Source: a virus
DNA: 64,000 bases
IMG/VR virus record: IMGVR_UViG_3300048583_000198
Location: 8,443 to 72,442 of that record
Direction: 5' to 3' (one strand)
This document shows, piece after piece, positions 11,705 to 49,551 of this stretch. The notes under the pieces were generated by a model, which saw only the letters and a program-made list of their open reading frames with translations, did not search any database and was not told where the DNA came from. The first letter of the stretch is position 1. Each line of letters begins with the position of its first letter. Made by a program: the position numbers and the translations under genes.

Positions 11705-11801
11705 GGATCTTCGTCCGTCTCGAGGCTGTCGCCATCACGGTCCCTGCGCGTGGTGTGCACAGGGCCGTACTCATTCGACTCGTCGTCGAGCCCCTGCTTA
11801 G
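11649..11801 (+). CDS. small basic Cys/His protein
   Basis: GAGGAG then GTG; MSRTIRKK...CRHHGPCAWC; converges on the vRNAP stop. Confidence 0.55.
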   Translation: MSRTIRKKLKGKGKARDGEDLRPSRGCRHHGPCAWCAQGRTHSTRRRAPA

Positions 11802-14800
11802 AACACCTTGGAGTGAATCGTCGCCGTAGGCGAACCCCACATCTGATCCAATCCCGTTGAGTTGTCGATGCCACGCTCGTAGATAGCACCGTCCAACGGT
11901 CCCGGAGTCCCCACAACATTGCCCAGCCCCTGGGACACAAAGAACGAAAAGGGATTTTTCCGGAAGCGGTTCAACAGCACGTTCTGTGCACGCAACGTGA
12001 ACTGACTCCACCAAATCATTCCGTACGTTTCGAGCGATGCACGCATCCGGCCAGGGTTGGTCTGATACGAAATCAACTCATCACGCACTTCATCACGTGC
12101 CTTTTCAACGGTTGCACCGTTCTCAATCATGTGCTGGAAGATCGCATAGCGTGCCAGGAAGTCACCCGCCTGAATCGCCTTTGATAGCGCATCATGTAGA
12201 GTACTGTCCTTTGCAAACAGTGCATTGGCCAGAATGGTTGGTGCCTTCGGGTGAACCTTCTCACGCAGATGGTTGTTCATCCAGCCAGCCAGATCACCCA
12301 GGTAGCTGTGTGACGGACTCTCTTCGAGACCTTCCGGCAGATCACTCAGCTCACCGGCTTCGATCAATGGGTAGATCGACAGGCGCTCAATCGAACGACG
12401 CTTTGCCGTCTGTATGGTGCGGAGACGTTCTTTCTCCACATCATCGGTTGTGCCAGCAATCTGGATGCGCAGCTGAATGACTTCCCGCTGCAGTCGGTTG
12501 TATGCCTGCACTTCCCGCATACCCTGTCGGTACCACTTCGCCATACGGGAAGGCGGTACGCCGTTGGCAATGACGAGATGCATTGCGCTCTGGAAGTTCT
12601 GGTAGGCAACCACCAAGCTTCGAACGATGATCAAGTCCTTTGCGGTGGCAACACCTTCCTTAAGTGCCTGTTCAGCTGCAAGGAAAATCTGTGTGCCCTT
12701 CGGTCCAGCAAACACCGTCTGGATGAGACCCAACAGAATCTTGCGCGTATCAGGATTCAACGACGCATCGCCCGTGTAGATCTCGAGCGCACCTGCGTTG
12801 TGATAGCCAATCGTGTTGGCCAACAGATCCTTGCGGACCATCACTGGGCCACCAAACGCATCAGCCAGATCGCGCTTGATGTCAGCCGGGATGTTCTCCC
12901 ACGCACGCGCCACCTGCTTGTCGGTGCTCGAATTCACCATTTCATATTCGGCTTCACGTCCAGCGTCTTTACCTTCCTTCCACTGGTTCACCATCAGCTT
13001 GATGGCTTCCTGGTTCAATCGACGAGCCATGTTCTCTTCGGTGATACGACCGAGCTTCTTGCCGATTGAAACGTGGAGAAGCGTGTTGTTGCCCTTCAAG
13101 CTCTCGCGGACGATGGTCGGGTCGAGCATGCGCTCGTAGCCCATCACTTCACCCTGGAAGTTGAACACTGCTACAAGGTTGCTGTCACGGCCCTTGGTGC
13201 GCTGGATATAGCTGACAACCTGCTGGTTACTCAGCATCGTCCCAACCTCCGGCGTCACAGAAGCGGCGGTGGTGTAATTGATACCCATCGCGGTCTGCTG
13301 CACGGTTGCAATGATGCCCTGCGAGAACACTGGCGGCGGCGTGTAACGACGGCTGTAGTAGTACAGATCGCTTTCCGGATCGCCAGAAGTCTGCGGATAC
13401 TTCTTGCCCTTGATGTAGCCGAGCTGCTCGAGCTGTGCTCCCTTAATGCCATTGGCGATGACCACGGATGAACGTGGGTCAGTCGACATGGGGAGACTGT
13501 CCTTCCAGTAGACATACCGGTACTCAGTACGCTGGTGCTGCTGTTCAGCTTCCTTAACGTGCTTGAGCATGCCCACGAGCTTGTCCATGGACTCGGGGTG
13601 AGCCCTGAAGTATTGGCCCACCTTGGCTCGCTCAGAGGCCGCCAGGTACTCGATGGCGTACAGGGTGACCAACTGATCGGCATCGGCCACAAGGCTGTCT
13701 GGAGCCGTTCTGCGACGGCCATTGAGGTCATCTGCGATGGCTCGAGCATTGCGCAGCAGTTCCTGGGCAATCCCCGGCTTCGGCTTGCGGTGCACGAGGT
13801 AGTAACCCAGGTTCTGAGCGTCGATGTAATTATCAACTTTAGATTCAAGAACGGTGATCATCCGCCGACGCTCAGCATCGTTAAGGTACATCTCAGCCGC
13901 CGAGCTACCCAGCACACTGACATCCAACCGGCCAAAGGCTTCGAACAGCGTGTTCCAGCCGTCGAAGTCCTCCGGGAAAAGTTTGCTCAGTTCCCTGGGG
14001 AGCGTGTTGTCGAACATGGAACGGGTCTGGTTGATCGCCGTCATCATGGCGTTGTGCGCCCGATAGATGAGTCGGCCATCGCCCTTAGTGCCAGCCAAAG
14101 CAGCAACCAGATCCTGGAGCCAACGCTGATCGGTGTGCGTGTTCACAGCTGCAATCAGACCGCTTCCAAAGGCCGCAGCGCCCTTCTCAGTGGTCAAGGC
14201 AGCGATGCCCTTGAGCAACGTGTCGACGTACTGTGGGGCACGTGGAGCGGCGTCAGCGGCTTTCTGGCCAAGCTTCTCCATCATCCGGTTACCAAGGCGG
14301 TCCAGACGGCTGGTCACCGTGGCGTAGTAGCTCTGCTCCAAGTCCTTCTCAACCAGCATTGCTGAAATGGCTTCATTCAGCATGTTGCCGCCTGAATCCT
14401 GTTGAGCATTGTTGAGTGCCTTGTCTATTAAGGCATCAGCAAGAGTCTGCTCATCCCGACCAGCCCACAGCCGGTTCAGCTGTGCACCGAAGGTCGGCTC
14501 AACAGCAGCCAGTGCCATGACGGCTGCTACGACATCAGGCGACTTGTTGAACAGGTTCTTCTGAGGATGCTTCGAGAACGTGGCATCCACAAACTGCTCG
14601 AGTTCGGGAGACCGCTGACCCACACGCAACAGCGTGTAGACACGGGTGAACAAACGCTGCTGTTCTGGCGACAAGTTGTATGCCGTCACTGCCATGGCTT
14701 GAGTAGCGAGGTTCTCGCGCTGCACGCCAGCCAGCTGAATGTTCTGTCCCTGGGCCATACGCTGGAACAGATCGACGTACGCATCTTCAGTCAGCTGCTC

Positions 14801-17800
14801 AAGCGTAGCCAAACCGTCTTCTGGGACATGCTGACTCAACCGAGTCGACACACCGTCAACGAGTCGGGCATCAGCCGGTACGCTGTCAGTCAAACTGCGG
14901 AACACATCCATGGCTTCGTTGTAGAAGTCATTGGCCGGTTCAATCTTGATGATGAAGCGCAGGATTTGCTTGACGCGGTTGATCACGCGCTGAACAAAAC
15001 CAGGCGACAATTCTTCGATCACCGCGTCTTCGGTGAACACGTACGCCAACATTTCGCCCAGCTCATCTTGTGGCTGACCGTGCCAGTCATACGAAGTCAT
15101 GACTCGCTGCACAAACCCAACGCGGCCAACGGCTGGCAACTTCTTGAACCGTTCCATGAGCTGCACGAGATCGTTAATTGGACCACGCAGCTCTACTGGC
15201 ACCTGATTGATGTTCGAGAAGAAGTTGTCGATGTGTCGCGTGAAGATTGTGTGAATCAACTCATGCAGCATCACCGAGGGTGAAGCCACCTTGAGCATGA
15301 TGAAGCTGCCGGACGCAACGCCGGTCGTCACGCTGAAGCGGTGCTTGTGCATGCCACGCTGTTCAATCGTGTTGTTCCAGGCTTCTTCCGTGTCAGCAAG
15401 TTCCACCGACAGGTCAGCTGGCAGCAGGTTACGGATACGCTTCCAGACCGTACGATGGATGGCATTCTTCCATTTCATCGCATCCAGGGCAGCGATTACT
15501 GCCGCACGATCGAGCTTCTTGTTGTTCACTTCGAAGGAAGTCTTCAGACCCTGATCTGTTTTCACCGTGCTCACAGATGCCTTGCCCGTCAGGCGGACAT
15601 TTCGGAATACGGGCTCACCATCGTCCGTCTGCAGATTGTCCGTGCGCAGAACTTGGTTCTCGCGGATCTTCTCTTCAAGTTCGGCATCGCTGTACCGAGA
15701 CTCAAACGTGATGATGCCTGCTCGCTTAGCACGCAGGTACATACGGATTGCGCTCGGGTGAACACTCTTGTCCGAGTCGTAAGCCACCCCAGCATCAGCC
15801 GCCATCTGCAACACCTTCACCAGACGCCGCAGCCCCGCACTCATGCCGTTCACAAGGCTTGGCTTAGCCGTGAAGGTATTGCGACCACGCCAACGCGGTC
15901 CCTTCATAATCACGTCAATGAAGCCTTCCTCGTCTTCAATACGGGTGGCTTCCGGATGCTTGTACTGATCTGGGTAACGGCCAGCTTCACGTGGACCCAC
16001 TTCAGAGATGTCAGCAACCTGAGTACGAGGAGCGTCTTCCTCGAGCGATAGCTCGAAGTCGAAATCAAGCGACGCACTGCTGCGCACTTCACCACCAGGC
16101 GTGTTGAATTTGCCACCACCACCCATTTGATAAACGGTGTGCTTACCAGCAAGCAGCTCTTCTTGGCCGGTACGCTGTTCTCGATGTAGCTGGTTAAACT
16201 CGTCAACCGCTTCATTGAACCGAGAAGCCCATGAAGCAAAATCCTCGATGAACATCTTCTCATTGGGCTGCATGCTGTTGAAGGTATCAACGAGTGCATT
16301 GCGCTCAGTCTCAGTCGCTGCATCTAACAAGATCCGCATATCAGCAACCATTCCCTGGAAGCTGTTCAGAATGTCAAAGCCAGCTGTGGCCCACACGGCT
16401 TCATTCAAGGCCGTTCCAGCGGCCTCAATGTCGGTGACCTTCAGATCAATACCGTCGAACACGTTCGTGGCATTCCACGCTTTCTGGAAGAAGCGAACAC
16501 CCATCGAAGCATCGCCACCCGAGATGGTGAGCAAGGCCAGGATGCTGACACCGACAGGACGAGGCGCAGGCGAGTCGAGATTGGCATCCATCGAAGTACC
16601 AAGACCCGTGATGGACGTTGCGTTTGGATTGAAGTCAGTGTTGTTCAAGCTGACGGTCTTGGGACCGTTGAGCGTGTTGAACGACAGGTCAATCGTTTCA
16701 GACATCAGGCGGTCATACTCGTCACGGCTGAGATCGTACAAACCAGTCTTCTTGTACTTCTCAAGCAGCGCCGCATTCTCAGGCTTAGCTTTGATCCATT
16801 CCTGAAGCTTTTGGTCCCACTGAACCTTCTTCATCATGTAGGCAAAGTTGGTCAGCTTAACCAGAGTATTGGTGACCTGCACAACACGACCTTTCTCACC
16901 GCCGTAAGCTTTGCTCATTGCAGAAGCCAAACCATCTAATGAGCGATGCCAGCGCACAGCATCCCAATTTTTGGCCTTGCTTAGCTGCTTTACATCCATG
17001 CCAAAACTTTCGTGGCCACGGAGCAACGTCTCAAGATGGCCCATCTGAGCCACCAGCTGCTGACGACGAGTTTCATCCGTCGTTCGATCCAATTCGTTCT
17101 TGGCTTTGATCCAGTTGAGATTGATGTTACGTACAACATCACTCCATAGTTGACGTTTAATCCCTGTTGGTCCACCGCCATATTGAACAGGAATCACGGC
17201 CAGCTTACCGGCATCTCGACGGAAGAGAACTTGAGGAAGACCCTTCACCTCAACACGCTCGCCGTTGAATACAACGGACATGTTCGGCGTTTCCTTCGTT
17301 TGAGGCAACACCTCAATGAGTCCAGCTGCTTCAAGCAGGAACAACTGACCCTTCAGCGGATTGATCAGGTTCGGATACTGCTTGAGAAGATCAGCCAGTC
17401 CCTTCACGAAGTGATAGCGAGCACGCATGTTGATGCGGCCATAGAAGTCGTCGCTCTCGTATGCTTCACGCATACGATCACGCTCAGTCTCGTAGGTTGC
17501 ATCCTGCTTATCCAGGAATAAGCCGCCCTGCTCAAGGTTGGCTCCATTACGCACACCCAAGCCGAAGAACAGTTCGGTGTTGAATGCACCGTTGGTCTTG
17601 CCGTCAATTTCGAACATCAAGTAGTTCGTGAACGTGCCCTTACCATCCTGAGCAAGGATGCGACCGTAAGTCAACAGAGCCGCCAGCTCACGAGGGCTGT
17701 AAGGCTTGTCACGGTTTTCCTTCAGTGCTGCAAGCAGTGCAGCCTGATCAGTGCGAGCTGCCCATACCTTCTTGGCAAGAGCAGCGTGCTTACTGCGAAT

Positions 17801-20800
17801 CTTCTCCCATTCACGAAGTACTGAAGCCGGATCATTGATGTCAGTCTTGACGCCAAATGCCTGAGCCAAAGTCATCTGCATGTACTTGGCATGATTCGGA
17901 TCGTCAAGATTCAACTCCTCTTCTGCGGAGGAGAACATGTCACGCACAAACTTGTTGTTCTGCGGACCCATCACGGTCTTGACGCGGTTGTTGATACCGA
18001 TGTGGTACTTGTAGAACAAGCCCTTGGCACCACCCTCCGTTAGCTCGTGGTATTTGCGTACTGCAGCAAACTCCATCGTGAGTCGCTCGTTCTGGCTCTT
18101 GAGCCATTCACGCACGCTCGAGGGAACGGTGCCGTCATCTTTCTCGGGCACAGCGCCATACCAACCGGTGAGAACCTGCTTCATCAGGTCATCGCCCAGC
18201 GTAGTGAACATGCCATACATGTCGCCAAACAGACCATGGCGAACCTTTTGCAGGTTCTCCAGGGCAGTCTGCATCGGTGCAGAAAGCTTCGTCCTGGTGT
18301 ACTGAATCGTGTTGTCGACTTCAGTATGCGGCTCAGACTGCGCTTCCCATACACGCTCACCATCCAGCTGTTCCTGCACAGCGTCGATGGTATTCATATT
18401 GTTCTTAGCAGCGTTCCGGGCAGACTCGGTTGGGACCAGAATCTGCATGGTATCCATGTACGAGGCATCGCTGAGCGTACCGTCCGAGGTCGCCTCCAGC
18501 GTGCGCAGATTCGTGTTGTTCCATGCATCCGTTTCTGGATTGAAGTCTGCCTTCATGTCGAAGTTTTGGGACTCAATCAGAGCAGCGAGCGTTGAGAGCC
18601 CATAAGACAGGAACGTGCCCTGCGAAATGTCGAGGCTGGCGCTACGCTTTGCCGTGACACCGAGCAAGGTCATCGCAACGTCAGCGATATCCTGTGCCCA
18701 CACTTCCTTGAAGATGTCACGCGACAGTCGACCTTGCTCATCGACAAGCTCACCTGTGAACTTGGCGGAGTTGCGGAACATGACGATAGCGCCAGCCCAG
18801 GCAAATGCCTTGATCACTTCGTCAGGCACCGACATCTTGCCGCTCTCTTCTTTCTGCCAGAGTGCGGATGCAACGCCGTACGGCTTATCCAGGTAGTCTT
18901 CCTTACCGGACTGCGCGATATCGAGGATGCCCTGCTGGAGAATGCCACGACGAGTGCCATCCTTGAACTTCGGACCCTTGCCAGCCAGCAGTTGATAAAG
19001 AGCACCGGCCTCACTGCGATAGAGATCGAACGCAGTTGAGGTCTCTTCACCACGGGTAACGGTCATTGACTTGAACTTCTCAAGCCAACCATCAACCGTA
19101 TTCGCTGGGTCGATGTTGAACCACGTGGCCAGACTGTCCCGCGCCCAGCTTGTTACTGCGAGGAGGGGGTTTTGCGTTTGAGGCTGCGGAGCAGATTCCT
19201 GAGCAGTGTTGCTATCAACCCCAGCGTCAGGAACACCAGCAGGCTCTGCTGGAGGATTCTCTCGAGCCAACCTGGCTTCAACATCTCGCTCGTAGGCTCG
19301 GACGGCTTCTCGTTCGGCTGCATCTTCCTTCTCCTGTTCTAGGCGAACTTTCTCTTCTGCAGCCAACTTCTCAGCCGCATCCTTTCGAGCAGCTGCTTCA
19401 GCTGCTTTCGTTTTCTTTTCGTCACGAGCAATCCTCTCTTCTTCAACCTTTTCAGTTGCCTGAATAGCTGCACGCTCAGCACGAGCCTCTCGCTCAGCTT
19501 CCGTTTCAGCCTTTTTCTGGGCAGCCTCCTCCTCAGCTTTCTTCTTGGCTTCAGCCAGGATAGCGGCATTCGGAGATTCTTCCTGAGGCTGAGCAGCAGC
19601 TTGTCGAGCAGCAATGATGGCATCGAGCTTAGCCTTCTCAGCGGCAGCTCGTTCCATGGATGCAGCAGCGAGCTGTGGGGCAGTCTTCGCAACTGTGTCC
19701 CACATGCGCTCAGCTTCAGCAACGTCAGCCAACACTTCATTGACCATGTTGCGGGAAGCTTCAGAACCACGGCCACTGATGTAGATGCGGAATGGATTAC
19801 CCACTCGCTTGCCATCTTCATCTAGCGTGGCAGTGCCTTCGACTTCCACGTAGTTGGTCTTAAGGTATTCGGCGTACTCAGGCTTACGAACGTTCTCAGG
19901 CTTCCTAAGCAAGTCAACAAGTTCGCCAGCCTTCCTGAACGCTTCACCGCGTGCACGAAGATGTTGAAGGAATCCAGCCGCCTTGGTGGCTGCGCCAATC
20001 GGAGCCTTGGTGTCAGATACACCTTCGACACGCAGGGCTGAGGCAATACCGTTGATGTAGTCCAACATGCCACGCTTGCGAGTGGCTGCTTTACCCGTCG
20101 ACCGATTCTCCCAACCCTTGTTGAGGATCTGTTCACGGGTTTCTTCAGTCTTGGAAGTCGGACCAGGACGAGCCACTGCAGCAGGAATCTTTTTGAGTTC
20201 CTGCACGAGCGGCTTCAGAGGCTCAGGGACAGCTTCAATCGGCAGACGGGCAATGTTCACCGCTGCCACTGCCTGCACCGTCTGCTGGGCTTCTACGTCG
20301 CCCTGGTTGGCTGCTTCAACAGCTGCAGCGATCTCTTCGTCGCTCTTCTGAGCAATCTGTGCCTTGGCTTCGTCGATCTTACCGGCAGTTGCCAGTTCCT
20401 CAGATTGAATGATGGCCTTGGCCTGAGCCTCGTCTACTTCACCATCTTCAGTTCGAGTGATGTCAGCACGAGTCTCGAGTGCATTGGCCGTGAGGACAGC
20501 CTCTACATCAGAGTCGGCACTCTTTGCCGGAGCCACTTCACCAACAGGCAGTTTATATGAAGTCGGTTGAGTTGCGTTCTCTTCCGTTGAAGGCTCAGAA
20601 ACGACTGGAGCCGTTTCTACAGCGGGCTCACCAGATGAGCCTGTGCTGTCGGGAACCGTTTCTTCGACTGCCGCCGTAGATTGGATCACCTCCTCGGAAT
20701 TCGGAGTAGCTTCGATTGCCTCAGAAGCAGCCGCAACAGCCGCACCTTCAGGCGTTTGAGCACGCGATTTGAGACCAGAAGCGGCTGCGGCCAGCCCTTG

Positions 20801-21775
20801 ACGCACACCTGCGCCAATAGCCTGAGCTGAGTTCCTGACGAGTCCAGGAGCCCGCATACCACCTGTGAACAGAGAACTGATAACGGCTGCTTCGCCAGTA
20901 GCCGCACCGACACCTTCCATTGGATCTCGACCGGCAAGCACGTTGTCGGCCACCGTTTGACCAATTGCCATGCCGCCTTCTTCGAACACTTCGGCACCGA
21001 TGGCCGAGGCGGTAGGACGGATTGCATCGCCCAGGAACTGGGAAACAACGTTGGTGCGTCGACCCAGCGGATCGAGTTCGAATCCCGGAGTAAGCTTGCC
21101 AAGTACGGTACCCAAACCAGCACTGAATGCACCAGCCAGAAGTGCTTGACGTTCGGCTTCAGCTGGATCACCCGTCTCCTGCAAAGCTCGTTCATACGTT
21201 TGGCCATATGCACCAGCACCTTCCAAAACACCACTGAGTGCAGCCACGCGATTTATAGTAGCGAGTTCACCTGTACCGGTAGCTACACGGCTGAGCACTG
21301 TTGGAACAGCTGCTTTCGAAGCAACACCCATGGCTCGAGCAGCAGGACCGATCATCAGATACGGAGTCTGCGAAGCCACATCAGCAATAACATTACCGCC
21401 GCTGAAGGTGTTGCCTACAGCTTCAACGAAGCCGGCTACTTCGCCTTCTTCAGCTGTAACACGAGCATTACGGGCAGCATCATCTCTACGTTCAGCCAGA
21501 TACGCAGGTGAACGGAGTTGATCAAGAGTCTGTGAGTTTCGAACGGCATCAGCCAGTTCATACGTTGGGAGAGTGGCCAGCGGAATGCTGCCAAGACTCT
21601 GCAACGTATCCAAGATACCAACGGCGGAATCGCCTACCGTGTTGCGATGACGATAGGCATCGTTCTCTCGCAAGGCACCAACAAGGTCATTCGACTCGAG
21701 AACGGATGTGTCACGAAGTTCTGCCGACGACAGCAACTTGAGTTCTGGAAGCGAAGACTTGATGTCGTCAGCCAT
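11798..21775 (-). CDS. virion-encapsidated RNA polymerase (N4 gp50-like)
   Basis: 3325 aa; motif A EIDGKTNG, motif B R..GK....VQYGGG, motif C NVFDG, HELIH; no Cys seen on reading, a hallmark of N4 vRNAP. Confidence 0.95.
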   Translation of the reverse strand: MADDIKSSLPELKLLSSAELRDTSVLESNDLVGALRENDAYRHRNTVGDSAVGILDTLQSLGSIPLATLPTYELADAVRNSQTLDQLRSPAYLAERRDDAARNARVTAEEGEVAGFVEAVGNTFSGGNVIADVASQTPYLMIGPAARAMGVASKAAVPTVLSRVATGTGELATINRVAALSGVLEGAGAYGQTYERALQETGDPAEAERQALLAGAFSAGLGTVLGKLTPGFELDPLGRRTNVVSQFLGDAIRPTASAIGAEVFEEGGMAIGQTVADNVLAGRDPMEGVGAATGEAAVISSLFTGGMRAPGLVRNSAQAIGAGVRQGLAAAASGLKSRAQTPEGAAVAAASEAIEATPNSEEVIQSTAAVEETVPDSTGSSGEPAVETAPVVSEPSTEENATQPTSYKLPVGEVAPAKSADSDVEAVLTANALETRADITRTEDGEVDEAQAKAIIQSEELATAGKIDEAKAQIAQKSDEEIAAAVEAANQGDVEAQQTVQAVAAVNIARLPIEAVPEPLKPLVQELKKIPAAVARPGPTSKTEETREQILNKGWENRSTGKAATRKRGMLDYINGIASALRVEGVSDTKAPIGAATKAAGFLQHLRARGEAFRKAGELVDLLRKPENVRKPEYAEYLKTNYVEVEGTATLDEDGKRVGNPFRIYISGRGSEASRNMVNEVLADVAEAERMWDTVAKTAPQLAAASMERAAAEKAKLDAIIAARQAAAQPQEESPNAAILAEAKKKAEEEAAQKKAETEAEREARAERAAIQATEKVEEERIARDEKKTKAAEAAARKDAAEKLAAEEKVRLEQEKEDAAEREAVRAYERDVEARLARENPPAEPAGVPDAGVDSNTAQESAPQPQTQNPLLAVTSWARDSLATWFNIDPANTVDGWLEKFKSMTVTRGEETSTAFDLYRSEAGALYQLLAGKGPKFKDGTRRGILQQGILDIAQSGKEDYLDKPYGVASALWQKEESGKMSVPDEVIKAFAWAGAIVMFRNSAKFTGELVDEQGRLSRDIFKEVWAQDIADVAMTLLGVTAKRSASLDISQGTFLSYGLSTLAALIESQNFDMKADFNPETDAWNNTNLRTLEATSDGTLSDASYMDTMQILVPTESARNAAKNNMNTIDAVQEQLDGERVWEAQSEPHTEVDNTIQYTRTKLSAPMQTALENLQKVRHGLFGDMYGMFTTLGDDLMKQVLTGWYGAVPEKDDGTVPSSVREWLKSQNERLTMEFAAVRKYHELTEGGAKGLFYKYHIGINNRVKTVMGPQNNKFVRDMFSSAEEELNLDDPNHAKYMQMTLAQAFGVKTDINDPASVLREWEKIRSKHAALAKKVWAARTDQAALLAALKENRDKPYSPRELAALLTYGRILAQDGKGTFTNYLMFEIDGKTNGAFNTELFFGLGVRNGANLEQGGLFLDKQDATYETERDRMREAYESDDFYGRINMRARYHFVKGLADLLKQYPNLINPLKGQLFLLEAAGLIEVLPQTKETPNMSVVFNGERVEVKGLPQVLFRRDAGKLAVIPVQYGGGPTGIKRQLWSDVVRNINLNWIKAKNELDRTTDETRRQQLVAQMGHLETLLRGHESFGMDVKQLSKAKNWDAVRWHRSLDGLASAMSKAYGGEKGRVVQVTNTLVKLTNFAYMMKKVQWDQKLQEWIKAKPENAALLEKYKKTGLYDLSRDEYDRLMSETIDLSFNTLNGPKTVSLNNTDFNPNATSITGLGTSMDANLDSPAPRPVGVSILALLTISGGDASMGVRFFQKAWNATNVFDGIDLKVTDIEAAGTALNEAVWATAGFDILNSFQGMVADMRILLDAATETERNALVDTFNSMQPNEKMFIEDFASWASRFNEAVDEFNQLHREQRTGQEELLAGKHTVYQMGGGGKFNTPGGEVRSSASLDFDFELSLEEDAPRTQVADISEVGPREAGRYPDQYKHPEATRIEDEEGFIDVIMKGPRWRGRNTFTAKPSLVNGMSAGLRRLVKVLQMAADAGVAYDSDKSVHPSAIRMYLRAKRAGIITFESRYSDAELEEKIRENQVLRTDNLQTDDGEPVFRNVRLTGKASVSTVKTDQGLKTSFEVNNKKLDRAAVIAALDAMKWKNAIHRTVWKRIRNLLPADLSVELADTEEAWNNTIEQRGMHKHRFSVTTGVASGSFIMLKVASPSVMLHELIHTIFTRHIDNFFSNINQVPVELRGPINDLVQLMERFKKLPAVGRVGFVQRVMTSYDWHGQPQDELGEMLAYVFTEDAVIEELSPGFVQRVINRVKQILRFIIKIEPANDFYNEAMDVFRSLTDSVPADARLVDGVSTRLSQHVPEDGLATLEQLTEDAYVDLFQRMAQGQNIQLAGVQRENLATQAMAVTAYNLSPEQQRLFTRVYTLLRVGQRSPELEQFVDATFSKHPQKNLFNKSPDVVAAVMALAAVEPTFGAQLNRLWAGRDEQTLADALIDKALNNAQQDSGGNMLNEAISAMLVEKDLEQSYYATVTSRLDRLGNRMMEKLGQKAADAAPRAPQYVDTLLKGIAALTTEKGAAAFGSGLIAAVNTHTDQRWLQDLVAALAGTKGDGRLIYRAHNAMMTAINQTRSMFDNTLPRELSKLFPEDFDGWNTLFEAFGRLDVSVLGSSAAEMYLNDAERRRMITVLESKVDNYIDAQNLGYYLVHRKPKPGIAQELLRNARAIADDLNGRRRTAPDSLVADADQLVTLYAIEYLAASERAKVGQYFRAHPESMDKLVGMLKHVKEAEQQHQRTEYRYVYWKDSLPMSTDPRSSVVIANGIKGAQLEQLGYIKGKKYPQTSGDPESDLYYYSRRYTPPPVFSQGIIATVQQTAMGINYTTAASVTPEVGTMLSNQQVVSYIQRTKGRDSNLVAVFNFQGEVMGYERMLDPTIVRESLKGNNTLLHVSIGKKLGRITEENMARRLNQEAIKLMVNQWKEGKDAGREAEYEMVNSSTDKQVARAWENIPADIKRDLADAFGGPVMVRKDLLANTIGYHNAGALEIYTGDASLNPDTRKILLGLIQTVFAGPKGTQIFLAAEQALKEGVATAKDLIIVRSLVVAYQNFQSAMHLVIANGVPPSRMAKWYRQGMREVQAYNRLQREVIQLRIQIAGTTDDVEKERLRTIQTAKRRSIERLSIYPLIEAGELSDLPEGLEESPSHSYLGDLAGWMNNHLREKVHPKAPTILANALFAKDSTLHDALSKAIQAGDFLARYAIFQHMIENGATVEKARDEVRDELISYQTNPGRMRASLETYGMIWWSQFTLRAQNVLLNRFRKNPFSFFVSQGLGNVVGTPGPLDGAIYERGIDNSTGLDQMWGSPTATIHSKVF

Positions 21776-23919: not shown

Positions 23920-26220
23920 TTACTGGAGTCGAGGAGTCAATGTTATCTCGCTCATGAACTCCACAGGAGCAATTAAGCGGTTTACTAAGGTATCAGTTGT
24001 CGATTGTGTTCGCGCTAACCAGTCTTCAAGTTTTTCAACCGGAGCTAGCCACATTTGAGCAGGTAAAGACAATTCAGGAAAATTCTCTTCCCAAAGTTCT
24101 TCAAGCTGCTTCATTTGAGTTTCACGTTCATCAGCATCTTCGCTCCACTTATCCCACTCTTCCTGGATGAGTTCCATTTCATATTGAGTGTATGCAGCGA
24201 GTCCCCCAAAAATAAATGATGCGGCGCTCATTAATTGTTGTGTAAGAGTGATTGGGGTAATGGGGATGTTTAAATAAATTTGACCCAATTGACCAATGCC
24301 CCAGGTCAATGCGACTGTGACAACAACTTGAACGATAGCCCCCCACACTGAGCCCCATTGTTCTGCTGCCCATTCACCTGCTTCAACGGCCACATATTGA
24401 ACTCCAATAACTACTGCAGTAACTACTACAGCAGTCAAAACCGTTGCAATTGCTGTTGCAGCGGCAATACTTAAAGTAGCTGGTAGCGCAGAGTAAATAG
24501 CTCCGTACAAAGCACCAACGGTCGGTCCCAGTGATCCAAGACTAATCACCGTAATTACGAATGAAAAAGCTAACGTTACAAATTGAAAAAAACCGGTTTG
24601 ATACCACTTTTCTTTTACGACTTTGTAGCAGTTAAAAACAATATGCAGCGCCTCTTGGGCAAGTTGTAGTTGTTCTCTTCCAGAAAGAGTGAGATAAGTT
24701 TCCATCTCAAGTGGAATAAGAAAACCAGTTCCAAAATCTCCATCGGGGTCGTTGAAAGCGTCCCATACGCCACTCGAAACGTATTTACCTTTGTAGACAT
24801 AGTTTTCATGCCAAAGGCCGAAAATCATCAGCTCGGCATACGTTGATTCGGTAAGTCGCTTACGGATGTAAAACTTCGTGAAGTCGTAAGTTACTCGTTG
24901 AGTACCTTTACCTTTCCCGTAAGTAACTTCTTTTACAGAGTCTGTATCCCTACTGACTTCTGTTTCATAGGGTTGCGCTAAAGCTCCCGACTTTTCTTCA
25001 TAAGTCATGTAACGCCAAGCAATTTCCATATTTACACATGATCCTGCGGTTTCCGGATCAGTGATAGAAATGCTTTGAGAAGGGCAGATGTTGACTGATC
25101 GAACCGAAATAAAGTTGTACTTCGGATCTTTGTACGTGGGAATTTTTTCGTACCACGCATCAAAAAGCGGTTTGTTGTCGGGCAAACTCAATCGTAAACG
25201 ATTAAAGTAATTCCAGTGATATTCGTGAGCACACTGATTTGGTGATGCGATTTTTGTGCCTGGTTGAATAAACACATAGTCAATTTGCCCCTCATCTGGG
25301 CTTTCTTTGATTTGTGAAATCAAAGTAGGAATTTCTACACCAAGCTTACGTGCATACACTTTGCTCGTTTTGTACGAACTAGTGTTTTTCCAAACACTTT
25401 CTGGAGGCGGTGAACCGGCATTCGAATGGAACTGCCACTCGTCAAACCAACGGTTGTTCTTCTTCAAAACAAGTCCTGGGAAGGTACCCGAACCATTTGT
25501 AGAAATGTTTTGAAGGAACAAATTTAATTGCGCATCTGACCCACCTTCAGTATAGGAAATCGTTTGTGTAGGTCCGCCTGCTACAGAAATTTCAATAAAT
25601 AGACGAGATTTGATGAGATCATCTTCGGTACTGAAGAGAGTTTTCAAATACCACTCATCAAACGTGACAATCGTTGTATCAGGCTTTGTGAAAGTGAGAC
25701 GCCAACCATATTCATCAGGATGATTAATAGGATCATCTTGAATAGCAAAAAGCGCCAACGTCGAATCAACAGGAATACCAAATACTGTGGTGTGCACTCT
25801 TTGTAATGCAAAATCGTAGTTGTATTTAGTTTCAACTTGTTGATGCACAATTGTTTGATGATTTGTAGTGCGAACAAGCGCAACAGATTTCAAATCAATA
25901 GAGCTTGGTGCATAGAGTGCTGTTAAATATTCAAGAGTCAGTACAGCAATCACATCTGGATCAGCAGAGTTGCTAATGTGAGCCAAACCGATGGGCAATC
26001 CTGAATAGTAGGATTTAGCTGCGTAAGCGTAAGCTTGCCGCAGCTTTATCCCTAGCCCATCAATGATGGCTTTCTTGATTGCAACTGGTGTGTTTTGATT
26101 CTGAAGTTTAGAACCAATGACAGCAGTTTCAATCATGTCCGGAATTTTGTCCAACTCCGGACCCAACGGATAAATTACAGACGAGACGTAAATTGTTTCG
26201 TCACGGCTGAACAGTCCCAT
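23920..26220 (-). CDS. virion structural protein (gp53-like)
   Basis: MGLFS...YVSS start, VKEKWYQTGFF, hydrophobic C-terminal region. Confidence 0.75.
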   Translation of the reverse strand: MGLFSRDETIYVSSVIYPLGPELDKIPDMIETAVIGSKLQNQNTPVAIKKAIIDGLGIKLRQAYAYAAKSYYSGLPIGLAHISNSADPDVIAVLTLEYLTALYAPSSIDLKSVALVRTTNHQTIVHQQVETKYNYDFALQRVHTTVFGIPVDSTLALFAIQDDPINHPDEYGWRLTFTKPDTTIVTFDEWYLKTLFSTEDDLIKSRLFIEISVAGGPTQTISYTEGGSDAQLNLFLQNISTNGSGTFPGLVLKKNNRWFDEWQFHSNAGSPPPESVWKNTSSYKTSKVYARKLGVEIPTLISQIKESPDEGQIDYVFIQPGTKIASPNQCAHEYHWNYFNRLRLSLPDNKPLFDAWYEKIPTYKDPKYNFISVRSVNICPSQSISITDPETAGSCVNMEIAWRYMTYEEKSGALAQPYETEVSRDTDSVKEVTYGKGKGTQRVTYDFTKFYIRKRLTESTYAELMIFGLWHENYVYKGKYVSSGVWDAFNDPDGDFGTGFLIPLEMETYLTLSGREQLQLAQEALHIVFNCYKVVKEKWYQTGFFQFVTLAFSFVITVISLGSLGPTVGALYGAIYSALPATLSIAAATAIATVLTAVVVTAVVIGVQYVAVEAGEWAAEQWGSVWGAIVQVVVTVALTWGIGQLGQIYLNIPITPITLTQQLMSAASFIFGGLAAYTQYEMELIQEEWDKWSEDADERETQMKQLEELWEENFPELSLPAQMWLAPVEKLEDWLARTQSTTDTLVNRLIAPVEFMSEITLTPRLQ

Positions 26221-45456: not shown

Positions 45457-45687
45457 TCAGAGCGCATTCCACTCATCCTCGGAGCCACCACTGAATCGTG
45501 GGGCGAGGTAGAGCTTACCGTCTTTCCGCTTCACGTAGCCATGCTTTTCGAGCGTCTTGGTCCGGAGGAATGCAGCCACTGCTGTCACCTGCAGTTCCTT
45601 GCCAAGCACCGCATACGATGCGTCAACCCAACAACCCTTGCACCACTTGGCCAAGAGGTTGACGAATGCCAGTTGCTTTACATTCAC
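45457..45687 (-). CDS. small winged-helix DNA-binding protein
   Basis: SY..LG.EL.V....A......LE..GYV.R pattern; GAGG RBS. Confidence 0.65.
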   Translation of the reverse strand: MNVKQLAFVNLLAKWCKGCWVDASYAVLGKELQVTAVAAFLRTKTLEKHGYVKRKDGKLYLAPRFSGGSEDEWNAL

Positions 45688-45715
45688 GTGCTTTGTCCTC
45701 CGTTAAGGTGAAGTG

Positions 45716-45744
45716 ATTCTGCATGAGCCCGTGATATTTAGCAA
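45716..45744 (-). promoter_or_regulatory. sigma70-like late promoter at the head of the late operon
   Basis: TTGCTA-17 nt-CAGAAT; shares ATGCAnAAT with the 27943 promoter. Confidence 0.5.
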
Positions 45745-45829
45745 GAGACTTAACGTCCATTTTTTGAGGTTGAATTTTGGTCAGGTGGGAGTTTGAGAGT
45801 TTGAGACCTTCAAACTCGAAACCTCCCCC

Positions 45830-45860
45830 CCGGATTACACGTGCACTACGTGCACATCGG
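45830..45860 (+). promoter_or_regulatory. vRNAP-type hairpin promoter P1
   Basis: CCGGATTACAC GTGCAC-TAC-GTGCAC ATC GG; template-strand loop C-GTA-G; +1 at 45859 by N4 spacing. Confidence 0.7.
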
Positions 45861-45890
45861 ACCAACCTCGGTCCTTCCATGGAGTTCATC

Positions 45891-46100
45891 ATGTCCCTCA
45901 TCAAGACCGCCTTCTCTGGCATGGTCCAGAAGATGCAGCTCGAGAACGCACTGCAGCTGCAGAAGCACCAGCACCTGCGTCCTCCGCAGATCCGACTGCA
46001 GATCGCACAGGGCCTCACCGCCATCGACGAGCAGCTCGCAGCTGACACCAAGCTGAAGAAGCGCTTCGACACCATCACGCTCACGTTGCCCACAACCTGA
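45891..46100 (+). CDS. early protein 1
   Basis: GGAG RBS; first ORF after P1. Confidence 0.7.
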   Translation: MSLIKTAFSGMVQKMQLENALQLQKHQHLRPPQIRLQIAQGLTAIDEQLAADTKLKKRFDTITLTLPTT

Positions 46101-46105
46101 GCTAA

Positions 46106-46134
46106 CGGCCTTCCCTCGCAAGAGGGAAGAGCCG
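46106..46134 (+). terminator. GCAA-tetraloop hairpin after early gene 1
   Basis: CTTCCCTC-GCAA-GAGGGAAG; no U-tract. Confidence 0.5.
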
Positions 46135-46161
46135 GAATACACGTGGCCTTCGGCCACTCAG
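46132..46161 (+). promoter_or_regulatory. vRNAP-type hairpin promoter P2
   Basis: CCGGAATACAC GTGGCC-TTC-GGCCAC TCA G; template-strand loop C-GAA-G. Confidence 0.7.
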
Positions 46162-46285
46162 CGAAGCAGGACGATAGATCCTGTCTCTGGTGCATTACGC
46201 TGAGGGAAGTGAGCAGTCCGTACCAACCGCCTGTTGTACCCTTCACAGCACGTCCCAGAGTCCCTCTATCGTTCCTGTCCTTCGC
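46161..46285 (+). ncRNA. candidate early rod-like ncRNA
   Basis: GCGAAG/CTTCGC, CAGGA/TCCTG, CGATAGA/TCTATCG, CTCTGG/CCAGAG nested pairings; 5' end equals predicted P2 +1. Confidence 0.5.
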
Positions 46286-46323
46286 ATGAACACCTTTAAC
46301 GGCTGTGCCCTCTTGGGCATTGT

Positions 46324-46355
46324 CCGGACTACACATGCGCATTCGCGCACGTCGG
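46324..46355 (+). promoter_or_regulatory. vRNAP-type hairpin promoter P3 (variant)
   Basis: CCGGACTACAC ATGCGC-ATTC-GCGCAC GTC GG. Confidence 0.55.
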
Positions 46356-46392
46356 AGTGCAATCCCGCACTTCGTTTCTCTGGAGAAAGTTC

Positions 46393-46650
46393 ATGAGCAT
46401 TGGAAACATCGTCGAGAGCGCCAAGCCTGCTGGCAAGCGCGTCACCTACGGCATCCTCATCAAGGCTGGCACGTTCAGCCTGAACGAGTGGGGCCTCACC
46501 GAGAGCGATGCGAAGCAGGTGCACGAGATCCTCGTGGCCCGTAAGGACGAGCCGTTCGAGCTGAACGGTCTCACCTTCGCTCGCCGTCCGCCGTCCGACC
46601 TGTCGGCGCAGCTGGCCGCGTTCAAGGCCAAGGCTCCGGCAGCCGTCTGA
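46393..46650 (+). CDS. early protein 2
   Basis: GGAG RBS, strongly C/G-ending codons. Confidence 0.75.
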   Translation: MSIGNIVESAKPAGKRVTYGILIKAGTFSLNEWGLTESDAKQVHEILVARKDEPFELNGLTFARRPPSDLSAQLAAFKAKAPAAV

Positions 46651-46658
46651 CCGGAAAC

Positions 46659-46700
46659 AGCAGCGTCCATCCCATCACGGGGTGGGCGCTGTTGTATTTT
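46659..46700 (+). terminator. terminator hairpin after early gene 2
   Basis: CAGCAGCGTCCATCCC...GGGGTGGGCGCTGTTG followed by TATTTT. Confidence 0.65.
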
Positions 46701-47121
46701 CGGAGTGTTCTGCAACACACGATAGACCAGCCCAGGCAGTGCGAGCAGCATTGCCATTGGGCGGCATCACGGCCAAAGGATTGATCATGTAGATACCACG
46801 CTGAATGCGCCGTATCAGATCACATTCCATTAAGGCTGGCAGATGATTCTGCACAAAGCGACTGTCCACTTCAGGGGACAGCAGCCTGGTGCGTACCACC
46901 TCATTCGTATCCACATTGCGTGCCTTCACCATGGCACGGAAGAGCTTAATGCTCGAGGGTGGGAGGGACGCGAGAGTATCAAGTAGGTCCATGCTTGCAC
47001 CGTTTCGGTTGGAATCGCCTGTTCCCACAATGAGGAACGGCGGCTTGGCATCACGCAATCGTCTGCGTCGGTGCGTCACCAACTCCTCATCGTAGGAGAG
47101 ATTTAGGATGCTATTAGGCAT
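46675..47121 (-). CDS. RepL-like winged-helix protein
   Basis: L..L...DLI.RI.RGIYMINP motif typical of RepL/wHTH proteins. Confidence 0.55.
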   Translation of the reverse strand: MPNSILNLSYDEELVTHRRRRLRDAKPPFLIVGTGDSNRNGASMDLLDTLASLPPSSIKLFRAMVKARNVDTNEVVRTRLLSPEVDSRFVQNHLPALMECDLIRRIQRGIYMINPLAVMPPNGNAARTAWAGLSCVAEHSENTTAPTP

Positions 47122-47270
47122 GGCATTAGTCTATGCCTTCAACGACTAACAAACAAGTAGTTAATACTAGGCAGCCCATCATTTCGTCTGGGCTACCAAG
47201 TATTACCTCGCTTGTAAGTGATTGATTTCCCTCACAACCCATCTGCTGATTCATTCTTAGGAGAACCAAC

Positions 47271-47435
47271 ATGTTGCTAGCTTTGCTCACGTTGACCGGT
47301 GTACTCAGCATCGTGCTGATGATCCGGTCTGTCTTCGTCGTGCATGACAATTTCCTGGGTGCTGTCCTCATGGGCATCTTCGGCTTTGTCAGCTTCGTTA
47401 TCACCGCTGTGCTCACCAATGTGGTGTCGTCATGA
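47271..47435 (+). CDS. 54-aa two-TM membrane protein
   Basis: AGGAG RBS; MLLALLTLTGVLSIVL... Confidence 0.65.
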   Translation: MLLALLTLTGVLSIVLMIRSVFVVHDNFLGAVLMGIFGFVSFVITAVLTNVVSS

Positions 47436-47608
47436 ACCTCAAGGAGATGATGCCTCTCGAGTTGCATGAGCGTCGGCTCAAGCTGCTCAAAGAGGTGAAA
47501 GAGATTGACGAAGAATTTCGTCGTCGCATTCATCCCATCGTCACCACCATTGACGAGCACCGTGCCAGGGCTGCGCATTACGCCAGCATTGGCAAGCGTC
47601 CGTACTAA
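47432..47608 (+). CDS. 58-aa hypothetical protein
   Basis: ATGA overlap; MNLKEMMPLELHERRLKLL... Confidence 0.6.
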   Translation: MNLKEMMPLELHERRLKLLKEVKEIDEEFRRRIHPIVTTIDEHRARAAHYASIGKRPY

Positions 47609-47621
47609 CAGGAGAACTCAG

Positions 47622-47930
47622 ATGCTCAATGGCATCGCAGTGTTTGTCATGCTCACCATGCTGTTCATGTGGTGCGGCAAGAAATGGCGGCAACGCCTTG
47701 TCGGGATGGGATTCCTGACAGACATCTCGGTGCACATCCTGTGTCAGCTACTGCTCGGCGGTGCCAATGAGGGCCGCCTTGCAGTGCTGTTCGGGTGTGT
47801 GCTGTTCAATTTGCACTTGATGACCTACCGCAAGCTCTGGGGCTATTCAGCCTTCGAAGAGGGAGCATGGGTTTTCCATCGTGGTCTGTTCAACTTCCGG
47901 AGGAACCATGGAACATCTCAGGCTGGATAA
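47622..47930 (+). CDS. membrane protein upstream of RNAP II
   Basis: AGGAG RBS, hydrophobic segments. Confidence 0.7.
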   Translation: MLNGIAVFVMLTMLFMWCGKKWRQRLVGMGFLTDISVHILCQLLLGGANEGRLAVLFGCVLFNLHLMTYRKLWGYSAFEEGAWVFHRGLFNFRRNHGTSQAG

Positions 47931-49551
47931 CCAGCGTTCACATGCTGTGAGTCTCGATCCAGACACACAGCACATCTTCCACTACGTGTGGATACGGGGC
48001 CGATGCAGCTTGGTAGAGCTGTTTCCCGTGTTCGCACGTAAGGTGGAAGGATTCCTGGAGAAGCTCGAGAGCTTGCTGGTGCAGGGCCATCTGCATACAG
48101 ATCTCAAGAGCATCTGGGCCAGGGACCGACAGATCGTGTTCACCGAAACTCCGCTGTCTCGACCGGAAGAGAGTGACAGCTGGGTGCTCAAAGCTCTGAA
48201 CGAGCAGGTGCACGTCGTCGGTGATGATTTTACGTGGAATGGTGCCATCCACATCAATCGTGACTTTCAGTTGCAGTGGCACAAGATGACGCTCAAGCCC
48301 GGAGATCGCTTCTATTTGGGCCATTTCGAGGATTTTCGTGGCCGCATCTACTGCAAGGGCCACATCCTCACGTATCAGGGCACCGACTTTCAGAAGTCCC
48401 TGATTCGTACTGAGCCCTATCAAGTGACAGACCTCGAGTGGCTGCACATGGACGTAGCTCGTAGCTATGGACTAGACAAAGCCACATGGGCAGAGCGTCT
48501 GGCATGGAGCTTGGACCATCCTGAGCTGCAACAAGGTGCCAAGGAGCCCTTCCTGTACAAGAGCGCCTGGGAAGCTCTGCAGAAGGCTCTCAGGGGTGAA
48601 ATGATTGATCACCCTGTCAGTCTGGATGCCACGGCCTCTGGCATTCAGTGCCTGTCGCTTATGGCGCAGGATCCAGTGAGTGCCTTGGCCGTCAACCTGG
48701 GTAGCCAGGTGGTCAACAATCCGTATCGGAAAGTCCAGGAGGAGATGGGACCGTACGACTACGAGCGTGTGAAGCAGGCCACGATGACGCACTTCTACGA
48801 GAGTGTGCTCACACCCTTGCAGCTGTTTGGCGATGACTATCCTAAGTTCCTGGAAGCCATGGAGAAATCCATGCCAGGGCCTACGGCTATTCGTGATGCC
48901 ATCGCCAGCTGCATGACGTACCAGGATCGGTACAGGTGGGTGATGATGGATGGGTATGAGGTCGACATGAAGGTGACCACGCCCATTGAATGCACCATGG
49001 ATATCGGTGCTGGCCATCAGATGACGTGGATAGAGCATCGACAAGCAGCCGTGGCCACCAAGGGGCTCACTGCCAATGTGACGCATAGCCTGGATGCCCT
49101 CGTTCTGAGGGAAGTGCTGCGTCGTACCCACTGTCCCTACCAGTGGTACCAGCATGAAACGCCTTTCGAAGAGCTGCGTGAGAAGGACATCCTGCTCATG
49201 CAGAGCATCATTCGGTGGCGACAGACTCAATTCCTGTCATTCGAGTTCATGGACCATTGTGATGGCATGAACCAGCATCTCGTTCCTCGAGAGCTGAGAG
49301 AGGCCGTGGACGCACGTACAAGCGCCGATTGCATGTACATCCAGCCCATCCACGACTGCTATCGAGTGAAAGCCAATGACGCCAGCCGCCTCTTCCAGAT
49401 TGTTCGGGAAGTGATGGCTGACTTGGCGTATGCCAAGACGGCGGAATGGCTGCTGCCTCAGCTCGGATACAAAGGCAGCATCAAGGACGATGAATGCAGG
49501 AGAACGGCATTGAAGGAGCAAGTCCTTAATAGCCTCTACCTGATATGTTAG
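47908..49551 (+). CDS. T7-type RNA polymerase II, fused gp15+gp16 equivalent
   Basis: DFRGRIY, motif A LDATASGIQ, motif B RVKQATMTHFY, AN.THS.D, motif C IHD in one 547-aa ORF; GGAGG RBS. Confidence 0.88.
   Translation: MEHLRLDNQRSHAVSLDPDTQHIFHYVWIRGRCSLVELFPVFARKVEGFLEKLESLLVQGHLHTDLKSIWARDRQIVFTETPLSRPEESDSWVLKALNEQVHVVGDDFTWNGAIHINRDFQLQWHKMTLKPGDRFYLGHFEDFRGRIYCKGHILTYQGTDFQKSLIRTEPYQVTDLEWLHMDVARSYGLDKATWAERLAWSLDHPELQQGAKEPFLYKSAWEALQKALRGEMIDHPVSLDATASGIQCLSLMAQDPVSALAVNLGSQVVNNPYRKVQEEMGPYDYERVKQATMTHFYESVLTPLQLFGDDYPKFLEAMEKSMPGPTAIRDAIASCMTYQDRYRWVMMDGYEVDMKVTTPIECTMDIGAGHQMTWIEHRQAAVATKGLTANVTHSLDALVLREVLRRTHCPYQWYQHETPFEELREKDILLMQSIIRWRQTQFLSFEFMDHCDGMNQHLVPRELREAVDARTSADCMYIQPIHDCYRVKANDASRLFQIVREVMADLAYAKTAEWLLPQLGYKGSIKDDECRRTALKEQVLNSLYLIC

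Follow-up and report, generated by a model that had tools for sequence, protein, structure and literature searches.

A rod-like 125-nucleotide hairpin at the predicted start of an early transcript in an uncultured N4-like phage: a possible structured mRNA leader in an exchangeable slot

The early regions closest in design to the one described here are those of coliphage N4 and Pseudomonas phage LUZ7, in which a virion RNA polymerase (vRNAP) initiates at hairpin promoters. In N4, the promoter heptamer is centred at -11, and the polymerase needs single-stranded DNA-binding protein (SSB) for transcript displacement: because it lacks the separation domain of the T7 enzyme, release of the nascent RNA relies on SSB (PMC4496689). 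N4-type promoters require the central base of the template-strand loop, position -11, to be a purine (PMC3715699). In LUZ7, the most expressed early gene has two tandem early starts, the measured start being a G 13-14 nucleotides (nt) from the hairpin centre (PMC9163698). The candidate small RNAs reported for LUZ7 are late, between orf69 and orf70, and not early (PMC9163698). Here we analyse a stretch of 64,000 nt (the window), bases 8443-72442 of the viral record IMGVR_UViG_3300048583_000198, which totals 72,442 bases. Its early region carries three hairpin promoters, P1, P2 and P3, and between early genes 1 and 2 a 125-nt stretch, 46161-46285 on the plus strand, that folds into a single long rod beginning at the start predicted for P2. 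We put forward, as a reading that falls somewhat short of probable, that this rod is the cis-acting, 5'-terminal structured leader of an mRNA running from P2 into gene 2.

The window encodes two RNA polymerases: a vRNAP, as a 3325-residue (aa) open reading frame (ORF) at 11798-21775 on the minus strand (phrog_2206 'virion RNA polymerase', E 7.5e-252), and a single-chain RNAPII-like polymerase at 47905-49551, with matches to phrog_2051 and phrog_2166 'N4-like RNA polymerase'. Because the RNAPII-like protein is only 25-30% identical to those of cultured N4-like phages, the source is, to judge from its proteins, a distant, uncultured N4-like phage. A nucleotide search with the stretch around the rod against 50,697 phage records gave zero matches. 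We found 58 RNAPII homologues at 62-81% identity, and scans with the RNAPII alignment yielded one useful viral contig (L002), 13 metagenome loci and nothing in genome contigs. Four loci (L002, L005, L006 and L011) reach the early region and are the relatives compared below. A scan with the gene 2 alignment returned the L002 contig again and nothing else, and an exact 30-nt pattern from the rod matched nothing in the viral contigs or the genome contigs.

Folding of the plus-strand RNA of 46161-46285 gave one nested hairpin with a minimum free energy (MFE) of -47.3 kcal/mol. Shuffled sequences averaged -32.06 kcal/mol (standard deviation 3.33; z -4.58) and none of 200 was as stable, so that the nested 125-nt hairpin of the preliminary description, which had been read from the letters alone, is real. 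The structure is a rod of about 40 stacked pairs with bulges. Its basal helices (positions 1-30 with 95-125) mostly have ensemble pair probabilities (p) above 0.9, and its helix GCUG/CAGC has p 0.5-0.8. Five of the six helices proposed earlier are present; the apical one, GTAC-CAAC/GTTGTAC, is absent (p 0.002), its place being taken by AGCAG/CUGUU (52-56 with 71-75, p at least 0.93). A competing CAGGA/UCCUG hairpin had also been suggested: as long as the growing transcript does not exceed about 105 nt, this is its MFE structure, but in the full rod it has p 0.0. The closing pair G46161-C46285 has p 0.98, which leaves the first nucleotide of the transcript paired, given the predicted +1. The rod folds autonomously, whatever downstream sequence is added, and its closing pairs keep p 0.91-0.99 whether the P2 transcript is taken to end at 46395, 46430 or 46480. 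The minus strand of the same stretch also folds (-54.3 kcal/mol, z -4.42), and for this reason folding energy alone cannot assign the rod to a strand; as DNA, the stretch folds weakly (-21 to -25 kcal/mol). The rod is present in single copy, the best other match in the genome being 12 nt long (E 0.41), and the idea of a repeat or mobile element was set aside.

The rod lies directly behind a promoter. The motif TACAC followed by a perfect hairpin occurs at exactly three sites in the 72,442-base genome, all on the plus strand and all within 500 nt. All three carry CCGGAnTACAC, and in each the predicted start lies 29 nt from the first C of this box. P1 (45830-45858, plus strand) has the exact box CCGGATTACAC, the hairpin GTGCAC-TAC-GTGCAC and a 3-nt spacer; P2 (46132-46160, plus strand) has the box CCGGAATACAC, the hairpin GTGGCC-TTC-GGCCAC, which ends at 46157, and the spacer TCA; and P3 (46324-46352, plus strand) has the box CCGGACTACAC and the hairpin TGCGC-ATTC-GCGCA. 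In L006, a close relative, zero of the 29 columns of P1 differ, two of the 29 of P2 (both within the CCGGA part) and one of the 29 of P3. Predicted starts were placed by the N4 rule, in which the centre of the hairpin loop is -11, and for P3 as box plus 29; they fall at 45859 (P1), 46161 (P2) and 46353 (P3). The loop centre of P2 is at 46150, which puts its +1 at 46161 and bears out the earlier claim that the first base of the rod is the start predicted for this promoter. When applied to N4 itself, the rule takes the P2 hairpin (557-573) to G576, and the N4 P2 oligonucleotide together with two initiating GTPs agrees with that start (PMC13492108). By analogy with the spacing measured in LUZ7, the P2 start could instead lie at 46163-46164, that is, 2-3 nt inside the first helix of the rod.

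This layout resembles that of N4, which likewise groups three same-strand hairpin promoters at the start of its early genes, with TACAC directly before a stem of 5-6 base pairs (bp), a 3-nt loop and a start 11 nt from the loop centre. The P2 hairpin, with its 6-bp stem and 3-nt loop, falls within the N4-type range of 5-7 bp and 3 nt. P2 here and N4 P1 share an identical TACAC-stem-TTC-stem layout, including the loop TTC, and the template-strand loop of P2 is GAA, with the purine A at the centre (-11) as in N4 P1. P1 of this phage departs from the N4 pattern: its loop is TAC, the loop found in LUZ7, which puts a pyrimidine, T, in the central template position that must be a purine in N4. Unlike in N4, moreover, the promoter cassette here adds the CCGGA box and an upstream stem-loop, and P2 precedes the 125-nt rod rather than a gene. 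Because P2 is one of only three such motifs, has the layout of N4 P1 and lies in a genome that encodes a vRNAP, it looks like a genuine N4-type virion-polymerase promoter. This argument rests on the exactness of the motifs, their clustering and the attached hairpins, because the count of boxes alone is not significant: CCGGANTACAC with at most one mismatch has 3 matches, against 2.58 expected. A prediction of sigma-70-like promoters over 45600-46900 returned none. Contigs from RNA run X16 include pieces over gene 1 (45895-46054) and over 46346-46641 and none over the rod, a gap that speaks neither for nor against a transcript there. We rejected the beginning of the second piece, at 46346 near P3, as a start site: the X1 DNA contigs break at 46349, and the edge is a contig-graph effect.

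We found that a helix at the predicted +1 is shared by all three early promoters of this phage. The predicted P1 RNA begins with the hairpin GGACC-AACCUC-GGUCC (45859-45874, plus strand), whose MFE structure pairs nt 1-5 with 12-16; in L006 its loop is longer by 1 inserted nt and its stem is intact. The predicted P3 RNA begins, in the fold of its leader, with CGGAGUGC-AAUCCC-GCACUUCG (46353-46374, plus strand), followed by UUUCUCU. Similarly, the P1 RNA of L002 would open with a 57-nt structure from +1, closed by GGGCA/UGCCC, and that of L005 with a 4-bp hairpin from +1; no +1 hairpin was seen in L011, where the promoter is cut by the contig end. Both N4 RNAs also open with a small +1 hairpin, GGACA-UGU-UGUCC for P1 (+1 at 107; L017, 107-119) and GGAUG...CAUCC for P2 (+1 at 576; L017, 576-593). 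In LUZ7, which likewise has small hairpins at its start sites, three of the four located hairpin promoters have one at +11 to +13 (L027, after the hairpins at 81, 792 and 3695), a count based on predicted hairpins and not on published start coordinates. A local hairpin of at least 5 bp stands exactly at +1 at four of the seven starts outside LUZ7, against 13.5% of genome positions; this test is post hoc, and the enrichment only suggestive. Counting any helix at +1 with a span of up to 130 nt was uninformative and was set aside, as 51% of genome positions pass. A helix at +1, or no more than 2 nt from it, seems to be a general property of these vRNAP transcripts, with the rod as its largest example. 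The coincidence of rod and +1 does not, therefore, mark a special RNA gene, because such helices are common to the early promoters examined.

If P2 fires, where would its transcript end? Beyond the rod lie, in order, 14 unpaired bases, a hairpin at 46300-46326, P3, the P3 +1 hairpin, the ribosome site of gene 2 and gene 2 itself. No hairpin-plus-U terminator was found between the rod and gene 2 (46286-46352 examined). The only canonical terminator of the early unit follows gene 2: a 23-bp hairpin at 46651-46705, not assigned to a strand, with AUUUUC behind it (-38.8 kcal/mol, z -8.06), which may work in both directions. By hairpin-plus-U criteria, the P1, P2 and P3 RNAs would all end there. 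In N4, gp1 and gp2 are each followed by a hairpin and a U run; here, by contrast, no U run stands behind either the hairpin that follows gene 1 or the one that follows the rod. That terminators follow N4 gp1, N4 gp2 and gene 2 here, with none between rod and gene 2, supports the reading of the rod as a leader.

We therefore propose the following course of events as a possibility, the weight of which is given above. The injected vRNAP would start at P2, a start predicted by the promoter motif together with the N4 rule. The leading 125 nt of the transcript would fold into the autonomous rod with its very first base paired, and transcription would continue past P3 into gene 2 and stop at the terminator at 46651-46705. 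The rod would then be an enlarged version of the +1 hairpin with which early transcripts begin in this clade, in N4 and in LUZ7. Its helix might shield the 5' end of the message. In Escherichia coli, the ompA-type 5' stem-loop stabilisers are short hairpins in which pairing of the first nucleotide blocks 5'-end-dependent decay; the rod resembles them in that its helix includes the first nucleotide of the predicted transcript, and is unlike them in its length of 125 nt. By this analogy, it may protect the mRNA from the same kind of decay. The early RNase III sites of T7 are hairpins of about 50-60 nt with a defined internal loop, in transcripts of the host polymerase. Like them, the rod is a long irregular hairpin between podovirus early genes, downstream of tandem promoters, and by this likeness, which is one of shape only, it could possibly be a double-strand-specific processing site. 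The rod could also help the nascent RNA to peel off the single-stranded template, the step for which the N4 enzyme relies on SSB. P2 and P3 would be tandem promoters for gene 2, comparable to the vRNAP hairpin promoter pair that feeds a single small, highly expressed early gene of LUZ7, drc (PMC9163698). Unlike P2 and P3, the two LUZ7 promoters stand 33 nt from each other and enclose no rod, and the start was measured 13-14 nt from the hairpin centre (PMC9163698). We considered and rejected an additional long-range helix, AUGAAC (46286-91) with GUUCAU (46389-94), which would mask the start of gene 2 in the P2 RNA only: its p of 0.87-1.0 fell to 0.06-0.08 with more downstream sequence.

The same terminator evidence bears on an alternative, which had been favoured in the preliminary description: that P2 makes a dedicated immediate-early non-coding RNA, ended or trimmed before gene 2, that acts in trans, for example as a double-stranded decoy or sponge that occupies a defence protein or RNA-binding protein of the host. 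We consider this unlikely, although parts of it stand, since the rod would head the predicted P2 transcript and P2 does head a unit without a credible gene. That unit is bracketed by its own cassette hairpins, P3 restarts transcription behind the rod, and a terminator-like element does precede the gene 2 ribosome site: the P3 +1 hairpin at 46353-46374 with its UUUCUCU was the one such site returned by a terminator scan, for which 0.9 were expected. As these are the first 22 nt of the P3 RNA, however, the same site would cut P3 transcripts too, and no canonical terminator follows the rod. Relatives from three DNA studies (X1, X5 and X6) retain the rod, whereas those at 62-68% RNAPII identity lack it or have something else in its place. 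Should the unit be gene-less, its product would be a free rod RNA of about 125-220 nt, double-stranded and almost blunt-ended, with a 5' triphosphate, an outcome to which we give little credence; that such an RNA would, within the first seconds and before any phage protein, engage a nuclease that binds double-stranded RNA or an RNA-sensing defence is equally doubtful.

We found no sign of a free RNA or a decoy, and the target of a decoy is pure conjecture. The rod has no second copy and no antisense target was found in the phage genome. Of 300 shuffled rods, 38, 257 and 29 had duplex energies as good as its own with the start regions of gene 1, gene 2 and RNAPII, respectively; the complementarity is thus not significant, and a role as an anti-ribosome-site RNA was rejected on this ground. 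In overall rod shape, and as an RNA of 100-200 nt, it resembles 6S RNA and other rod-like regulatory RNAs; unlike 6S RNA, it has no large central bubble, and a covariance-model search of 46161-46285 against Rfam at E <= 10 gave zero matches, 6S RNA included.

The reading as a leader accommodates a further feature of the locus, namely that the rod occupies a slot between two paralogous promoter cassettes. These (46092-46160 for P2 and 46284-46352 for P3) are about 60 nt each and consist of TAACGGC, a stem-loop, CCGGAnTACAC and the promoter hairpin. Because P2 and P3 sit in such duplicated stem-loop-plus-promoter cassettes, the slot between them is exchangeable. The two stem-loops, 46110-46129 and 46300-46326, occupy equivalent positions, with TAACGGC before both. 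The first, on the plus strand after gene 1, is an 8-bp hairpin with a GCAA loop that adjoins the P2 box (-14.7 kcal/mol, z -4.36) and has no U run. Because three of its eight pairs are changed on both sides in L006 with pairing kept, it is, on this sequence comparison, clearly selected; it is a candidate vRNAP terminator, 3' protection element or part of the promoter cassette. A GCAA-loop hairpin between early genes is also seen in L011. The second, also on the plus strand, has the core GUGCCC-UCUU-GGGCAU (-15.8 kcal/mol, z -2.77; matched in stability by 4 of 200 shuffles), overlaps the first bases of the P3 box and again has no U run. The arrangement is like that of the promoter-early stem-loop (PeSL) cassettes of T4-type phages, in which a repeated stem-loop with an early promoter flanks a variable slot (PMC2839356, PMC4122927). 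Unlike PeSL cassettes, those described here belong to another polymerase and promoter type, are present in only two copies, and enclose a folded non-coding stretch and not an ORFan.

Comparison of the relatives shows what the slot can hold. L006, 91.8% identical over 1015 nt, carries P1, P2, the rod and P3. L002, at 68% RNAPII identity, has P1 only, and between genes 1 and 2 an unrelated rod of 92 nt (-36.6 kcal/mol, z -5.58). As no promoter stands in front of it, the L002 rod forms part of an mRNA, and in sitting within a polycistronic RNA it is like the T7 RNase III sites. In L005, the slot between genes 1 and 2 contains a structured 231-nt spacer (z -3.77) with a 48-codon ORF. In L011, gene 2 precedes gene 1 (1-640), and the two are separated only by a GCAA-loop hairpin and UUU. 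The rod of the window is thus carried only by close relatives, about 92% identical, and the slot is, on these alignments, plastic: a long hairpin often fills it, though a different one. The structured elements of L002 and L005 share the slot between genes 1 and 2 with the rod, which supports a leader.

The plasticity of the slot also suits a different explanation, in which the rod has no RNA function: it would be filler between duplicated cassettes, a leftover of recombination or insertion, or a feature of the DNA itself, acting as a spacer or structure close to the end of the genome. We regard this as improbable, and hold just as little to its corollary that the foldback is an inherited inverted repeat now drifting. 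In T4-type phages, the paralogous-cassette arrangement mediates module shuffling (PMC2839356, PMC4122927). The content of the slot is unrelated in each relative, and both strands of the rod stretch, as well as its DNA, fold. Against filler, three lineages hold an unusually stable structure in the slot (z -4.6, -5.6 and -3.8), and at the DNA level the rod is weak (-21 kcal/mol), with too many irregularities to extrude readily as a cruciform.

Variation within the rod bears on both explanations. Between the window and L006, none of 56 columns of the 5' arm and 10 of 70 of the 3' arm are changed, in keeping with drift, given that the flanks are nearly identical: none of 38 columns from the rod end to the P3 box and none of 40 in the P3 leader are changed. 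DNA contigs of X1, X5 and X6 carry the rod as well, and among the changes listed, all fall within 46217-46280. In the consensus fold of the window and L006, none of the 42 pairs is broken, two are changed on one side to G-U and none on both sides. Pairing is kept in relatives about 92% identical; it lacks covariation, and L002, L005 and L011 either have no rod or hold other content in its place. The want of true covariation follows from the 5' arm being identical in all relatives that carry the rod.

All four natural variants, which we rebuilt from the listed changes, keep the rod, at -47.3 (window), -53.1 (X6-like), -56.5 (X5-like) and -60.3 kcal/mol (L006), which argues against filler. The L006 changes U101G, an inserted A and C103G extend a helix against the unchanged 5' arm, adding pairs, some of them G-U pairs that work only in plus-strand RNA. 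Consistent with this, the L006 rod is more stable as the plus strand (-60.3 kcal/mol, z -6.13) than as the minus strand (-52.0 kcal/mol, z -3.78). Random sets of equally many changes reached the stability of L006 in only 1 of 300 trials starting from the window and 3 of 400 starting from the X6-like variant. From these comparisons, the fold looks selected in the direction of L006 and merely tolerated in the window, with the polarity of change not fixed; the changes of the window itself are no better than random for folding, as filler would have it.

A third alternative is that a small protein gene overlaps the rod. The preliminary description had seen no convincing ORF led by a ribosome-binding site here; there is indeed no credible gene, and two small ORFs do exist. 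One begins with GTG and has 26 codons, the other with ATG and has 36, with an ATGA overlap between them. In L006, a 1-nt insertion joins the two into one GTG ORF of 62 codons, which begins at rod position 49 and reaches gene 2 with an ATGA overlap. We consider such a gene very improbable. The frame is open in both phages, ATGA overlaps are typical of coupled translation, five of the nine substitutions fall at third codon positions (binomial p about 0.15), and GAGG precedes the GTG. That GAGG is merely 3 nt from the GTG, however, and the ATG of the 36-codon ORF has no Shine-Dalgarno sequence (SD). In addition, a 1-nt indel (L006/X1) shifts the frame between phages otherwise 92-99% alike, and the second half of the ORF is dictated by the P3 promoter sequence. 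A search of a set of 5.8 billion proteins gave no homologue sharing even three 5-residue words, and the 36-aa part had no Pfam match.

Several observations weigh against the reading of the rod as a leader. We infer from sequence its P2 start, the read-through into gene 2 and its strand alike, and in the window the minus strand is the more stable one (-54.3 against -47.3 kcal/mol). The weak terminator-like site at 46353-46374 could end the P2 RNA before gene 2, and P3 looks redundant if the P2 RNA reads into that gene. Because L011 has no rod and the opposite gene order, the rod is dispensable in the clade. True covariation is found at none of the 42 pairs, the version in the window is the least stable of the four variants, and its stability was reached by 147 of 300 or 208 of 400 random change sets. 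Finally, the stabiliser and processing roles are drawn by analogy from the ompA and T7 hairpins. Taking both sides into account, we hold it to be a nearly even proposition, if not quite, that the rod is a structured leader specific to its lineage, set in the exchangeable slot that the duplicated promoter cassettes enclose.

The genes on either side of the slot are small. Early gene 1 (45891-46100, plus strand; 69 aa, SD GGAG 6 nt upstream) has homologues in L006, L005, L011 and L002 and zero PHROG or Pfam matches. Between the window and L006, it is a hot spot of divergence, with 38 of 213 columns changed and 13 non-synonymous and 11 synonymous codon changes. Early gene 2 (46393-46650, plus strand; 85 aa, SD GGAG 7 nt upstream) is conserved in the clade, with homologues in 11 clusters at 60-96% identity, and belongs to no family, with zero PHROG, Pfam or PDB matches; its structure model is poor (predicted local distance difference test 55.8) and unfit for a fold search. 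It is almost identical in L006, with 6 nucleotide differences across 85 codons. Between the early terminator and RNAPII, at 46675-47578, lie two minus-strand ORFs of 148 and 150 aa, the first with a match to a RepL-like winged helix that falls short of the threshold (E 0.0017). Both are found in L006 and partly in L007, L008 and L011, and are absent from L002 and L005. There is no further TACAC hairpin promoter for RNAPII, the genome holding only P1-P3. RNAPII is one chain of 547 aa here and in about 40 relatives, and is shorter, about 346-382 aa and covering 63-70% of the query, in about 19 others, including the L002 phage, which suggests, from these sequences, split and fused forms inside one clade. 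Just upstream of P1, 19 bases at 45753-45773 are replaced by 335 other letters in a 10.6-kb X6 DNA contig; this variable spot may be the location of a genome end or terminal repeat. Elsewhere, the G+C content falls to 0.419 at 24001-26000, inside a 766-aa minus-strand ORF (23920-26220), from about 0.52-0.58, and this stretch may be an exchanged module.

In the literature on N4-like phages, the LUZ7 supplementary tables being outside our search, we found neither a +1 hairpin rule nor an early non-coding RNA made by a vRNAP, and such a rule for N4-type vRNAP RNAs seems not to have been stated before. If the rod were a stand-alone RNA, it would be the first RNA effector from an injected polymerase and the first non-coding product assigned to a vRNAP. 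If it is a leader, it would be an ordinary, though unusually large, case of the +1 hairpin rule. That rule offers a cheap check on predicted starts in uncultured N4-like phages, and it suggests a role for the folding of nascent RNA in transcript release by a polymerase without the T7 separation domain.

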